Below, piece after piece: positions 11,141-22,463 of a DNA stretch of 64,000 nt. The stretch is from a bacterium (GTDB lineage Bacteria > Hinthialibacterota > Hinthialibacteria > Hinthialibacterales > Hinthialibacteraceae), in the NCBI GenBank assembly GCA_963662285.2, contig CAXXMV010000001.1, positions 96,001-160,000 of the forward strand. Direction: 5' to 3'. Position 1 is the first letter of the stretch. Each line of letters starts with the position of its first letter. The notes beneath the pieces were generated by a model that was not told the origin of the DNA, searched no databases, and was given only the letters and a program-made list of their open reading frames with translations. The position numbers and the translations under genes are program-made.

Positions 11141-11349
11141 TGAACTCTATTCCTTTGCAGAGCGTTTGTTCCACATGCAGGCGATGCAGAAACATTTTAT
11201 ATATGGTTGAATTGATTCTCTCATAAAAAAGAGAGTCTTGTCAATCTGCCTTTTACTATAATTCACCTTAAAGAGAGGAGTAACTCCATTAACAGTATCG
11301 TATGCCTCTAAAGAGTTGAGCGTAGATCACATATTCTGGTAGTTTTTTT

Positions 11350-11379
11350 TTGACATGATCTAGTTTTGCATAGTATAAT
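11350..11379 (+). promoter_or_regulatory. sigma70 promoter with consensus hexamers
   Basis: TTGACA (11350-11355), 18-bp spacer, TATAAT (11374-11379), upstream of GGAG RBS and GTG at 11418. Confidence 0.75.
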
Positions 11380-11417
11380 GTTAAGGTAATTATTACCCGG
11401 GAATGGAGTAAGAAAAA

Positions 11418-11645
11418 GTGAAGACTGCAGAAGAATATATTATTGGCTTCAATAAGCTTCCCCCGGAAGAGAAACAAATAGTCGTTGACTTTGTGATCTC
11501 TACCGAGGAAGAGGTATTCAAGGAAACCAAATATTCAGAAGAAGATTTGGCTTTACTCGACCAACGTTATGAAGAAGCCAAAAAAGGGATCAATGTAGAT
11601 AGATTTTCCTCGATGGAAGAAGCGATTAACTCAAAACTAGTTTGA
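11418..11645 (+). CDS. small acidic protein, putative type II antitoxin/addiction-module component
   Basis: 75 aa; LPPEEKQIVVDFV and LLDQRYEEAKKG..VDRFSSMEEAI resemble addiction-module antitoxins; has its own promoter and RBS. Confidence 0.55.
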   Translation: MKTAEEYIIGFNKLPPEEKQIVVDFVISTEEEVFKETKYSEEDLALLDQRYEEAKKGINVDRFSSMEEAINSKLV

Positions 11646-11726
11646 ACAGAATTACTTATCTGTCGTTGGTCTATTATTGAATTTCCAGCATTACAATTAT
11701 TATTTGTAGAGAAGGATAAATCATTA

Positions 11727-12611
11727 CTAGGGAGTTGTAGAAGAATTAACACTACATGAATTCATTATTTCTATTTCAAGTTTTTTATTCTCAAGTAGTG
11801 ATGGTGGTTTAACTATTTCATTCCCAGTCGGTATCTGTGGTTCAATTAGGGATTCAGAGAGTTCAACATTACTTTGTGAATCTTTTAATTGCTCTCGTAT
11901 TTTATTGTTATTATTTTTCAACTCTCTTGAATCATTGTCGATAACCATAAAAGCACATAAAAGCATAAATGATAAAAGACCTAATGTAATAGCTCTACAT
12001 GAAGCTCTAAAGACTCCTATTCTATAGTTATTACACTCTGAAAGTTTGTCGCCACAGTGAAAAAACTCTTGTACAAAGAATCTCTTAACCTTATTAAGGT
12101 CAGCAAAAGACATGACTCTTTTCTGATTTGGGACGTAAACCGTTTGTACTCCAAAATGTACAAGAACAAGAAAGATCGCGCTTGTAATTAGTATTAAAGG
12201 AATTAAGATTAGCCATTTTATTTTTATATTTGGACTAACGAATGCAAGTGCAGTAATTAATAGAGCCGCTATGGTAAGAATAATCTTATTCTTCTCATCA
12301 ATGATTTGGCTTCTCTTTTCTTCATCATCATAATGGGAATGGGATGAACTTAATTGTATATCAAGAATCGCTGGATCAATTGACTCTTCGTTCTCTCCCA
12401 ATTGTTCGCTCTCTTCCCCTTGTTCTAAAGAAGTAAACATGCGATTTTTTTCTACTTCCTGATACGTATGTCCTGGATTAAGGATAAAGAGTAATATCCA
12501 AGTTATTCTATTTAAGCATTTTTCGTACCATTTCTCAAAAGTTTCAAATAATTTATTTATTCTATTGTTTAAGAGTATTAATAAAGGCATCTGAAATATT
12601 TGCTCCTCCAA
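11727..12611 (-). CDS. membrane protein (about 3 TM) in the graspetide locus; start uncertain (ATG at 12440 possible)
   Basis: Hydrophobic segments IILTIAALLITALAFV, WLILIPLILITSAIFLVLV, AITLGLLSFMLLCAFMVI; abuts or overlaps the ligase stop. Confidence 0.75.
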   Translation of the reverse strand: MEEQIFQMPLLILLNNRINKLFETFEKWYEKCLNRITWILLFILNPGHTYQEVEKNRMFTSLEQGEESEQLGENEESIDPAILDIQLSSSHSHYDDEEKRSQIIDEKNKIILTIAALLITALAFVSPNIKIKWLILIPLILITSAIFLVLVHFGVQTVYVPNQKRVMSFADLNKVKRFFVQEFFHCGDKLSECNNYRIGVFRASCRAITLGLLSFMLLCAFMVIDNDSRELKNNNNKIREQLKDSQSNVELSESLIEPQIPTGNEIVKPPSLLENKKLEIEIMNSCSVNSSTTP

Positions 12612-13515
12612 AAATATCTAGCCAAGCCCATTGTCCATTGGGGTTGATTTCAAAGAAATACCATTCCCCCAATTCTGTTACACCAAAGTCAAGTGCAGCA
12701 AATCGTAACTTGTAACTACGCAGAAGATTTCTTATAGCAATAGAAATCTTCATTGGTATATCGATTGGGAAATATTCCACATTATCCATATTATCGCGAC
12801 GAATGTCTAATTGTTCAATATTGTTTTTTAATCCCATGCCAACTAGAGTATTGTCAATTACTGTTACCCTGACATCAAATATCTTCTCTATTTGTGATTG
12901 GAAGAGAATAGGGCATGTGCTAATTTTTTCCAAGAGAATATGGTGTTCCTCTTTGAAAAGATTAGTATAGATAATTGTGTCGTTATCAAGATGATCTCTC
13001 TCAATGTAGCCACTAGCCAGAGGTTTCACGATTATGCCGTTTGGTTCTGAATGGATAAAATTTTTAGCTTCTTCAATGTTGTTTGTGACTATAGTTCGGG
13101 GAATCATCAAACCATATTTCTTAGCTCGACTTAATTGTTCGATCTTGTGGCTAGCACAAGAGTTTCGTGCAGGATGATTGATCCAATATTCTTCTTCAAT
13201 ATGCGCCAAAAATCCTTCAATTGATTCTGACCATTCCCCTGCAGTATGCATTTCTGCGTATTCATCTTCTATCTTTTCAATATTAATGGGCTTGGGTCTT
13301 CTTAAGATTACGGTTTTTATCTGTTCCGGTTGTATTGAATCAAAAGCCCATTTTAGGTTCAATGATTCAGGCTTGTAAGAAAATAACGATGTACAACAAT
13401 CAATATCTGTATTAAATCGGCAAAAAGGTAAATCATGCTCTTCTAGCCGCATGCAGAGATAATCTGATGTTGTATCTTCTGAATTTGTAAGTATAAAAAC
13501 CTTATTAGTGTTCAT
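12562..13515 (-). CDS. ATP-grasp peptide maturase (graspetide synthetase, MvdC/MvdD/RimK-like)
   Basis: WINHP...HKIEQL...GLMIPRTIVTN, IVKPL, PILFQSQIEK..DVRVTV, LDIRR, FAALDF, WYFFEINPNGQWAWLD. Confidence 0.93.
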   Translation of the reverse strand: MNTNKVFILTNSEDTTSDYLCMRLEEHDLPFCRFNTDIDCCTSLFSYKPESLNLKWAFDSIQPEQIKTVILRRPKPINIEKIEDEYAEMHTAGEWSESIEGFLAHIEEEYWINHPARNSCASHKIEQLSRAKKYGLMIPRTIVTNNIEEAKNFIHSEPNGIIVKPLASGYIERDHLDNDTIIYTNLFKEEHHILLEKISTCPILFQSQIEKIFDVRVTVIDNTLVGMGLKNNIEQLDIRRDNMDNVEYFPIDIPMKISIAIRNLLRSYKLRFAALDFGVTELGEWYFFEINPNGQWAWLDIFGGANISDAFINTLKQ

Positions 13516-13826
13516 GATTTGTGGGTTTGGGGTATAGAGAAAAAATTCCGATTGCTTTCGTCTTGGTCGTTCTCCTCTCGCGCTTCTGTAAGTGTTTTTG
13601 TTTGTAAATCTGTTTTGAGTGGCAACGCATTATAACTAGCGTTTTCTCTATTTTGTTCAGGTTCTTCCCGAGCTTTCGTAATCGTTTTAGATGCATTATA
13701 CATAAGCCTATAATCCTGTTGCCCTTGTTGTTTCGTTAGTGTTTTATTCCCTTCAGTAGAATCTTGTTTATCAGGAACTACCTTCTCTTCAAAAATGGAC
13801 CAAAATCTACTTTCAATCATTTTCAT
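13512..13826 (-). CDS. graspetide precursor peptide (multi-core)
   Basis: 104 aa with RBS GAGG; stop overlaps ligase start (ATGA). Repeats NKTLTKQQGQQD, SKTITKAREEPEQ, TKTLTEAREENDQD; leader-like RFWSIFEE. Confidence 0.85.
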   Translation of the reverse strand: MKMIESRFWSIFEEKVVPDKQDSTEGNKTLTKQQGQQDYRLMYNASKTITKAREEPEQNRENASYNALPLKTDLQTKTLTEAREENDQDESNRNFFSIPQTHKS

Positions 13827-14054
13827 TCCTCTCAGTTTTTTTAGATATGGTATCTTTCTAAAATTATTGTAGTTAGATTTTTAAACAATACTTCATTTGT
13901 ATAATTTATTATACACGACTTTATAATAATTATTATACAATGTCTAGTTTTCATAATATTTTCGTGTTAATAAAATATGTGGGAAAAATTACTTTTCAAA
14001 AGAATAGATATTAAATGAAGATTTATTTCAATCTAACGTTGAAACTGAAGGATT

Positions 14055-14089
14055 TGTTCAAAGCCCCAATATTTCGGAGGCTTTGAACA
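14055..14089. terminator. hairpin/terminator downstream of the 14131-15339 gene
   Basis: TGTTCAAAGCC...GGCTTTGAACA; same outer stem as 19858-19893. Confidence 0.6.
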
Positions 14090-14130
14090 TGAATTATTAA
14101 ATATGATATTTGGAGAAGCGCTCTAACAGT

Positions 14131-19914: not shown

Positions 19915-20511
19915 CTATAATCCTACTAAAGCATCATCGCATGGATAAGACGATCTGGCGCCGAGTCTGATTAAATCACCCATACTGCTTAAACCATTGG
20001 AAACTTGATAGGTAACAGTGTTGCCCCATGTATTAGTGTAATCAGGACCAGCGCTGGTAACTTTATAGTCGCAGCAACGCGCCTGTGGAGGTAAAACAGT
20101 CAATTTACCAAAATTAATCCGGCTCCAGCCATCGGTATAGTCATAAGTTATATATGCGGCATCCTGCTCATCGTTCAGGCGTTGTCCGGGAGCGCCATAG
20201 AGAAACGGGTCTTGGGGAACGGTTGGCATATAAGAGACAGGAGTGGTTAAAGGAATAAGCCGTCGGTTAACCGGATTCTTTTGCACCCCGCTTGCATCAA
20301 GCCAAGGAGGGTAAATATTGTTATCGATTTTATAACTCTCAAGAGCAGTAGCGATAGTACGTAATTCGGATTCGGCTTTGGCAATCTTGGAACGAATCAT
20401 GGCATTGATGAAATTCGGTACCGCGATAGCAGCCAATATTCCAATGATTGCGACTACTATCAGCAATTCAATTAAGGTAAACGCTTGCTTCTTTTCAATA
20501 ATAGAAAACAT
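19915..20511 (-). CDS. prepilin-type N-methylation domain protein (GspG-like pseudopilin)
   Basis: AFTLIELLIVVAIIGILAAIAVPNF; LTTPVSY...DPF, SAGPD, Y.VSNGL.S.GD. Confidence 0.9.
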   Translation of the reverse strand: MFSIIEKKQAFTLIELLIVVAIIGILAAIAVPNFINAMIRSKIAKAESELRTIATALESYKIDNNIYPPWLDASGVQKNPVNRRLIPLTTPVSYMPTVPQDPFLYGAPGQRLNDEQDAAYITYDYTDGWSRINFGKLTVLPPQARCCDYKVTSAGPDYTNTWGNTVTYQVSNGLSSMGDLIRLGARSSYPCDDALVGL

Positions 20512-21601: not shown

Positions 21602-21860
21602 ATCATTTATCCTTTGGGAGAAATAGTAATTGATTGAAAAGATTATATATTCCTTTATCAATCCAACAAGGATATTTTTGAGAAACACTCTAACTGCAAT
21701 ATATAACGCTATTTTTTCATCACAACAAATGTTAGACTTTGACTTATGACAAATGTGCTAATAAACCAATTCCTCAGGAAATTTCTCCTTATGGAATTCA
21801 TGTAAAAATAGTGTAAATTTGTGTGAAACATTGGCAATTAACCATAACAAGGAGTTGAAA

Positions 21861-22463
21861 ATGAAAAGATATAGTTGCAAGGCATTTACCCTTATAGAGT
21901 TATTGATCGTCGTAGCCATTATCGGGATTCTGGCGGCCATTGCCGTACCCAATTTTTTGAATGCCCAGGTTCGGGCTAAAATCGCACGGGTTGATAGCGA
22001 CCTGCGCACCCTGGCGGTAGCCATGGACTCTTACCGTATTGACCGGGGCGCCTATCCACCTGACTGGATTGGCGCTGGAGGCGGCAGCGTTCAAGAAAAA
22101 GGTTTTATCCGGGCGATGTACAATTTAACCACCCCGGTAGCCTATCTTTCCAGCGTTGATCTTTCTGATCCGTTTTACACTGGCGCTGCAAAAAACGTTA
22201 CTTTCAATGGGGGCGGCTATGATCAAGCCACTTACCGCTACTTCTGCTATCGTTATGGTTGGGGAGACGCAGTCAATTATGTCAAAGATGGCTATGCCAT
22301 ACTCTCTTACGGCCCGGATAAAATTGAAAGTTATGGTGAATGGTGCGGCATCCCAAGGGGAAAAGGTTGGGATGGAATTTATAGTTCTTCCAATGGACTT
22401 CGCAGCATGGGCGATATTGTAAGGGCTGGCGGGGCGGTCAACGTAAATGGATGGCAGCAATAA
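21861..22463 (+). CDS. prepilin-type N-methylation domain protein (GspG-like pseudopilin)
   Basis: AFTLIELLIVVAIIGILAAIAVPNF; LTTPVAY...DPF, SYGPD, YSSSNGLRSMGD; RBS AAGGAG. Confidence 0.9.
   Translation: MKRYSCKAFTLIELLIVVAIIGILAAIAVPNFLNAQVRAKIARVDSDLRTLAVAMDSYRIDRGAYPPDWIGAGGGSVQEKGFIRAMYNLTTPVAYLSSVDLSDPFYTGAAKNVTFNGGGYDQATYRYFCYRYGWGDAVNYVKDGYAILSYGPDKIESYGEWCGIPRGKGWDGIYSSSNGLRSMGDIVRAGGAVNVNGWQQ

Follow-up and report, generated by a model that had tools for sequence, protein, structure and literature searches.

A graspetide cassette with a conserved membrane gene: a possible peptide-gated effector in phage defence

A short reading frame that ends inside the start of an ATP-grasp ligase gene, in an AT-rich island of a bacterial genome, raises the question of what its modified peptide is for. 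The window analysed here is the whole 64,000-nucleotide stretch of contig CAXXMV010000001.1 (positions 96,001 to 160,000). The earlier note on it had described a minimal graspetide locus, with no protease, transporter or tailoring gene present. A third co-oriented gene, conserved in the family, was however found next to the ligase gene, and the locus is a three-gene cassette of precursor, ATP-grasp ligase and membrane protein. Its features, in window positions, are:

11200 to 14100, no strand: low-GC island holding the cassette (GC content; integrase and repeat search)
13512 to 13826, minus strand: graspetide precursor, 104 aa, leader and three repeats (46 of 52 close ligases have a homologous precursor upstream)
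13785 to 13805, minus strand: leader motif FWSIFEE, F8–E14 (F, W, F, E and E invariant in 14 aligned precursors)
13713 to 13748, minus strand: repeat 1, N27–D38, degenerate, QGQ in place of REE (precursor alignment)
13650 to 13691, minus strand: repeat 2, S46–N59, partial core (precursor alignment)
13560 to 13601, minus strand: repeat 3, T76–D89, complete core TxTxTxxREExDxD (precursor alignment)
12562 to 13515, minus strand: MvdC/MvdD-type ATP-grasp ligase, 317 aa (family profiles, PDB relatives)
11727 to 12590, minus strand: three-helix membrane protein, 287 aa (ORF, profile, structure, conservation)
12234 to 12284, minus strand: transmembrane helix TM1 of the membrane protein
12150 to 12215, minus strand: TM2
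11940 to 11993, minus strand: TM3

The TGA stop of the precursor overlaps the ATG of the ligase gene as ATGA, as had been noticed, and the membrane ORF starts at 12590, 29 nt inside the ligase end and behind a GGAGG; a protein collection calls the same gene. The AT-rich island was likewise borne out: its GC content is 0.332, compared with 0.44 for the whole genome, and of 2512 stretches of the same size 11 are as low. At the island (11200–14100) no integrase, terminal repeat, att-like repeat or terminator was found, and promoter-like sites occur at chance level except for one perfect TTGACA-18-TATAAT site (11350–11379) that serves a neighbouring ORF. The latter (11418–11645, plus strand) encodes a 75-aa acidic antitoxin-like protein with no toxin adjoining; it has six paralogues in the genome and 0 matches in Pfam, NCBIfam and PADLOC, converges on the cassette and is probably not part of it. 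In a public run, which may represent the source sample itself, a single contig covers the whole cassette stretch with 0 differences. Elsewhere in the window lie two prepilin-type ORFs with AFTLIELLIVVAIIGILAAIAVPNF starts (19915–20511, minus strand; 21819–22463, plus strand).

The chemistry of the cassette can be read with some assurance from the ligase. The motifs LDIRR and FEINPNGQWAW reported for it were confirmed, and the family profiles gave TIGR04187 at E 5.5e-66 (223 bits) and MvdC at E 5e-46 (157 bits) as against 28 bits for RimK, all three scores lying under the curated cut-offs (350 for TIGR04187). RimK membership was rejected on these scores, and the grouping with RimK-like enzymes that the earlier note had named as contrary evidence was not found. 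The best solved relatives in the PDB are AMdnB and CdnC. Among 818 homologues found, the closest are ∼60% identical; K124, K164, Q206, R216, D276, E289 and N291, which from work on MdnC we take to be the catalytic residues, are invariant in 52 aligned homologues. No longer ligase forms of 598–2000 aa were seen, a range that leaves out two ligase-membrane fusions considered below. The ligase groups with MvdC/MvdD-type maturases and adjoins a precursor with a leader and donor/acceptor cores, so that the graspetide reading holds at the level of sequence, and formation of esters between Thr/Ser and downstream Glu/Asp by this enzyme is very probable. The window genome carries one graspetide ligase, and none was found in the 40 related genomes searched (19 of the same family). 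In a quick likelihood tree, the window ligase falls among loci labelled Sedimentisphaerales and Bacteroidetes, in a clade scattered over many phyla, which fits horizontal transfer.

Precursors similar to that of the window accompany the ligase in most of its close relatives, and the other contrary outcome named earlier, homologous ligases without an upstream peptide, did not materialize. Among the 52 close loci (L001–L051 and L053), a full precursor lies directly upstream of the ligase in 46 and a partial one in 1; four have no upstream DNA, and at L048 no precursor was found. At L013–L015, L021, L023, L025, L027, L030 and L038–L040, another precursor-like ORF, which is shorter and has the same leader, lies before the main one. 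The aromatic leader motif had been correctly recognized; the form F[WILV]xx[FY]xE is found in 43 of 47 precursors, and by analogy with PFFARFL, FWSIFEE is the probable ligase-binding helix. A double-glycine site is absent from the window precursor. Both FWxxFEE and TxTxTxxxEExDxD are rare, with 2 and 1 occurrences, respectively, in 14.57 million six-frame genome residues, the patterns themselves having been derived from the cassette family.

The three spaced repeats proposed in the earlier note are all present as quoted, but they are unequal and the third alone is complete. In repeat 1, which is short or degenerate in several relatives as well, at most one ester is predicted. Repeat 2, in which the first T is replaced by S, a D by E and the last D by N, may form up to two. 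The donor and acceptor residues for three esters occur in repeat 3 alone, where T80–E85 (or E84), T78–D87 and T76–D89 are predicted to be nested, because OEP6-1, a Group 6 graspetide, has three nested esters according to the available part of its description (PMC12291112). For the whole precursor, about 3–6 dehydrations (losses of 18 Da) are predicted. The precursors of the closest subclade repeat TxTxTxxREExDQD, followed by a [YF]xAIP linker.

Graspetides are sorted into groups, Group 6 among them, by a scheme that reportedly stems from Lee 2020. The lineage had been thought probably unexplored for such peptides, a view that does not stand, as a catalogue includes close relatives: in the accessible part of a 2026 RODEO supplement table (PMC13097080), Group 6 contains the precursors of L003, L011 and L018, while the window precursor's own leader has no match among the rows listed there. 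The window ligase shares 51% identity with the L003 ligase and falls with those of L003, L011 and L018 in a clade with a support of 99 in the quick tree. The RiPP class and group are already known and, as judged indirectly from its ligase, the window precursor is a new Group 6 member, with a core spacing shorter than in two published examples.

The membrane gene, in turn, is strictly linked to the ligase. In 48 of the 52 close loci, the gene after the ligase encodes a homologue (the membrane profile was built from 42 of these, and the other six match it at E ≤ 2e-29); the four loci without it are two with broken ligases (L017 and L051) and two that begin at a contig end (L045 and L049). A metagenome search from the membrane side found a ligase directly upstream in 25 of 27 cases, the other two starting at a contig end, and the ligase always comes before the membrane gene where this is testable (25/25). 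In all 38 genomes searched, the membrane gene is single-copy and sits at the cassette. Broken cassettes were also observed (L013, L017, L019, L051 and L124), with a split membrane gene, an insertion-sequence-like ORF in the ligase end and frameshifted ligases. R93 and K100 are invariant in the long, probably cytoplasmic stalk of the protein; its Lys/Arg counts modestly fit an N-in topology, and its core is predicted by AlphaFold to be all-helical (pLDDT 93). The profile matches 795 representatives (50% identity), and among the best 150 of these, 83 end in a Gly-X-Y tail of five or more triplets, a tail that the window protein does not have. One member of the family (P0181, 464 aa) carries an extra C-terminal domain of ∼200 aa.

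In two proteins from different subclades, P0185 and P0191, the ligase is fused to the membrane protein; each is known from a single database sequence, keeps a Met where the two parts join, and could reflect stop-loss or an assembly error. These fusions place the ligase at the N-terminus of the membrane protein and, together with the Gly-X-Y runs, would suit a scaffold with no pore activity, which anchors the ligase or peptide to the membrane or presents the peptide through a collagen-like tail. The tail is nevertheless missing from many members, the window protein included, and the thuringinin and OEP6-1 ligases reportedly work in heterologous hosts without the membrane protein; we regard such a scaffold as very improbable. 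It could also be asked whether the cassette copy in the window is decaying, irrespective of the role of the family, since two of its three repeats are degenerate, it has no Gly-X-Y tail and no counterpart was found in the 40 relatives searched. The three ORFs are intact, however, with the catalytic residues of the ligase, the leader, the last core and R93/K100 all kept, and a poor first repeat is shared with several relatives, so that decay appears improbable.

The membrane family extends beyond the close clade. Homologues adjoin the ligase in a thuringinin-type locus of Bacillus thuringiensis and in Group 5 loci of a Pseudomonas aeruginosa plasmid, a Leptospira phage and an Escherichia coli chromosome, and the profile of these proteins aligns to that of the window family with an hhalign probability of 98.5% (E 3e-14). 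One B. thuringiensis thuringinin-type ligase (L118, 5668–6849) has its N-terminus replaced by a PH-domain fragment, with an IS6 transposase adjoining and an insecticidal crystal-protein gene upstream. In the part of the 2022 survey by Makarova that is accessible (PMC8939145), cluster 18 is a family of membrane proteins that occurs 198 times, specifically at thuringinin loci, and it pairs with precursor cluster 13 in the thuringinin branch. We infer that cluster 18 is the window membrane family, in which case the three-gene layout is already known. The membrane gene of this branch has been published as being of unknown function or as a probable transporter.

What the membrane protein resembles bears directly on its function. 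The PADLOC profile for the Pycsar effector PycTM is matched by 13 of 43 members at E ≤ 0.1 (best 3.8e-8), with every other family matched by at most one member; the window protein alone reaches E 0.05–0.07 and has no match to Pfam PF18967 at E ≤ 0.001. Alignment of the family profile to 25 PF18967 proteins is colinear over the three helices with a score of 35 (probability 57%, or 77% for a broader profile), as compared with 12–22 for one reversed and 20 block-shuffled controls. In the ESM Atlas the Pycsar effector cluster came first among the named ones (0.88), which serves as a lead only. The LLFFGNF (FFG) loop motif of the sampled PF18967 proteins corresponds to a gap or no match in the family alignment. 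A search of PDB sequences with the membrane profile returned nothing below E 0.17, and Foldseek on the core gave 0 matches at E ≤ 0.001 and generic helical bundles at Z ≤ 8.8, a result that excludes no family. These comparisons suggest that the membrane family is weakly and distantly related to PycTM, which is described as disrupting the membrane once its ligand is made (PMC11224242, in the part available). Of 201 genomes from one phylum, 81 carry PF18967 itself, many of the proteins being ∼400-aa fusions and others of ∼190 aa (L178–L202), which suggests widespread non-Pycsar use; being common in one phylum and often fused, the domain alone is no proof of defence.

The main rival to a role in defence is a conventional natural-product cluster, in which the peptide inhibits proteases outside the cell and the membrane protein exports it or shields the producer. 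Characterized graspetides have been described as protease inhibitors, and the accessible part of the Makarova survey proposes peptide transport for cluster 18, whose loci are without other exporters (PMC8939145). Strict linkage and the absence of a C39 exporter fit export or immunity as well, and an island location fits any mobile cargo. On the other hand, the 43 members have no consistent transporter family in Pfam or among PDB sequences, PycTM being their sole consistent family match; the cassette includes no ATPase subunit or peptidase, and a fusion of ligase and exporter without leader removal would go unexplained. We consider export or immunity rather unlikely, and a part in phage defence, as opposed to a secreted inhibitor, is about evenly balanced between true and false.

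The genes around the cassettes provide a further line of evidence. ORFs of at least 120 aa up to 6 kb on each side were compared with PADLOC at E ≤ 1e-20, with short contigs counted as misses; under a strict rule, chosen after the first data, the best match had to cover at least 70% of both profile and ORF. The first control set (L052 and L054–L080) was unclean, with a membrane homologue in 7 of 28. These seven distant loci were inspected and then reassigned to the test group, and regions of 10.5 kb placed at random in 18 of the same genomes served as controls instead. Strict defence matches were found at 14/48 close-clade cassettes, 6/7 distant loci and 2/31 random regions, and at 3/21 graspetide loci without the membrane gene (p 0.09 versus 20/55). 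With the rule fixed first, a prospective set of new metagenome loci gave 5/12 (two near-copies dropped) and five further random regions 0/5, the latter too few alone (p 0.24). Pooled strict matches amount to 25/67 cassettes versus 2/36 random regions (Fisher p 3e-4) and matches of any kind to 33/67 versus 9/36 (p 0.02), enrichments that are inflated by the kinship of the cassettes and the general clustering of mobile genes. For any match, the close clade alone gave 20/48 versus 8/31 (p 0.23), and loci without the membrane gene 7/21.

The systems found beside cassettes include RM, CBASS, BREX, AbiE, IetAS and Pycsar; among the 10 genes that flank the window cassette, there is no defence gene. 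At L173 (5922–8336), a PycC, a second PycC-like ORF and a PycTIR lie directly after the cassette on the opposite strand. Loci L058, L060, L076 and L078–L080, which have no membrane gene and some of which are methyltransferase-linked actinobacterial loci, are also near defence genes.

Cassettes were also found in mobile contexts. The membrane gene is present at 7 of 13 ligase loci scanned in IMG/VR (two near-copies of 15 left out), and a single-protein scan of viral contigs found nothing. The Leptospira phage (KF114876.1; L120, 5685–7586) has a complete cassette whose precursor is annotated with a truncated start. In the E. coli chromosome (NZ_CP076270.1, 4777122–4779227; L203, 10706–12811), a complete but unannotated cassette of Group 5 type lies on an integrative element that encodes a relaxase and an integrase. 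SIR2, DUF3223, His-Xaa-Ser (hxsDBCA) and HerA genes adjoin it, and 2 of 5426 E. coli genomes have this cassette. Thuringinin-branch rows for E. coli are present among the first 30 of the 63 E. coli rows in the Makarova table (PMC8939145).

A patchy spread that includes plasmids and prophage-like contigs would also be expected of an addiction module or a non-phage stress switch, in which a membrane toxin neutralized by the modified peptide stabilizes a mobile element with no anti-phage role, and the likeness to a pore effector and the translational coupling of the genes are in keeping with it. Many toxin-antitoxin pairs are themselves anti-phage, however, and broken copies exist at the five loci listed above, with the ligase disrupted or the membrane gene split, which does not discriminate between the readings. 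An addiction role without an anti-phage function is improbable, somewhat more so than export.

How might such a cassette act in phage defence? In the mechanism that we put forward, the cassette would be a mobile unit of precursor, ATP-grasp ligase and membrane effector. The ligase would bind the FWxxFEE leader and, driven by ATP, join Thr/Ser hydroxyls to downstream Glu/Asp in esters that close hairpin rings, one inside another; the last repeat would hold three such rings, and repeats 1 and 2 fewer. The stapled polypeptide would stay in the cytoplasm, because there is no double-glycine site and no C39 exporter was found (no C39 peptidase was detected in the window genome, which is 92.5% complete). 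The three-helix protein would be its dedicated partner, a coupling that is genetic and from which the function is deduced, and the stapled acidic peptide would replace a cyclic nucleotide as the effector's ligand. In the most likely version, the peptide, as a guard or decoy, keeps the effector closed for as long as no phage protein binds, cleaves or depletes the peptide; alternatively, the peptide may open the effector on infection. In either case the membrane would then be disrupted and the infection aborted. Restraint is favoured over activation because nothing in the cassette resembles a phage sensor, and constitutive production with loss on infection is simpler.

Gating of a membrane effector by an intracellular stapled peptide during phage infection is a tentative proposal that falls short of an even chance. 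The wider suggestion that the thuringinin-branch clusters (Groups 3, 5 and 6) form an unrecognized, widespread anti-phage system, in which a stapled multi-core peptide gates a Pycsar-related pore, we hold with similar reserve. Literature searches showed no paper linking the cassette to defence or to PycTM, and subscription papers and supplements may bear on the point. If gating in Groups 3, 5 and 6 is real, protease-inhibitor activity in vitro may reflect bait for phage proteases, or be incidental. Should the membrane protein prove to be an effector related to Pycsar, a large and already known branch of RiPPs would turn out to be an immune system with the peptide as its gating ligand; should it instead serve export or producer protection, the window adds one more Group 6 precursor with shorter ring spacing. 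What is new is a testable reinterpretation of the membrane partner of graspetides, peptides so far studied for their chemistry; testing it would cost little, since E. coli natively carries a complete relative of 2.1 kb.

The cassette can finally be set against known systems. With microviridins (Group 1) it shares a homologous ATP-grasp fold, but these have two ligases, a PFFARFL leader and double-glycine cleavage, all of which the window cassette lacks; microviridin membership was rejected, as the genome has one ligase and the precursor neither PFFARFL nor GG. The thuringinin branch (Group 3) has the same three gene types and homologous membrane genes, although its gene order is ligase-membrane-precursor rather than precursor-ligase-membrane. 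The thuringinin core pattern is TxxTxxxExxDxD; its TxxT spacing occurs in 0 of 47 precursors, and membership in this core class was rejected. Group 6 is the nearest, with a single ligase, a multi-core precursor, TxTxT donors and E/D/D acceptors. In Figure S2B of the Makarova survey, as far as that source is accessible, both Group 6 examples have a 15-residue TxTxTxxxxExxDxD core (PMC8939145), whereas the window subclade has a 14-residue TxTxTxxREExDxD core, an FWxxFEE leader and a [YF]xAIP linker.

On the side of defence, Pycsar likewise places an enzyme beside a three-helix membrane protein, and the two families share a DxK...LL start of helix 1. Pycsar has a PycC cyclase, however, and the window cassette has none, the partner being a peptide and its ligase; Pycsar membership was rejected, as there is no PycC match on the ligase, the precursor or the 10 flanking genes. 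With Panoptes (OptS/OptE), the likeness is one of logic, with no homology claimed: in the available part of its description, a constitutive ligand keeps a membrane effector in check as long as phage does not remove that ligand (PMC13712596), which is a nucleotide, where the cassette would use a stapled peptide.
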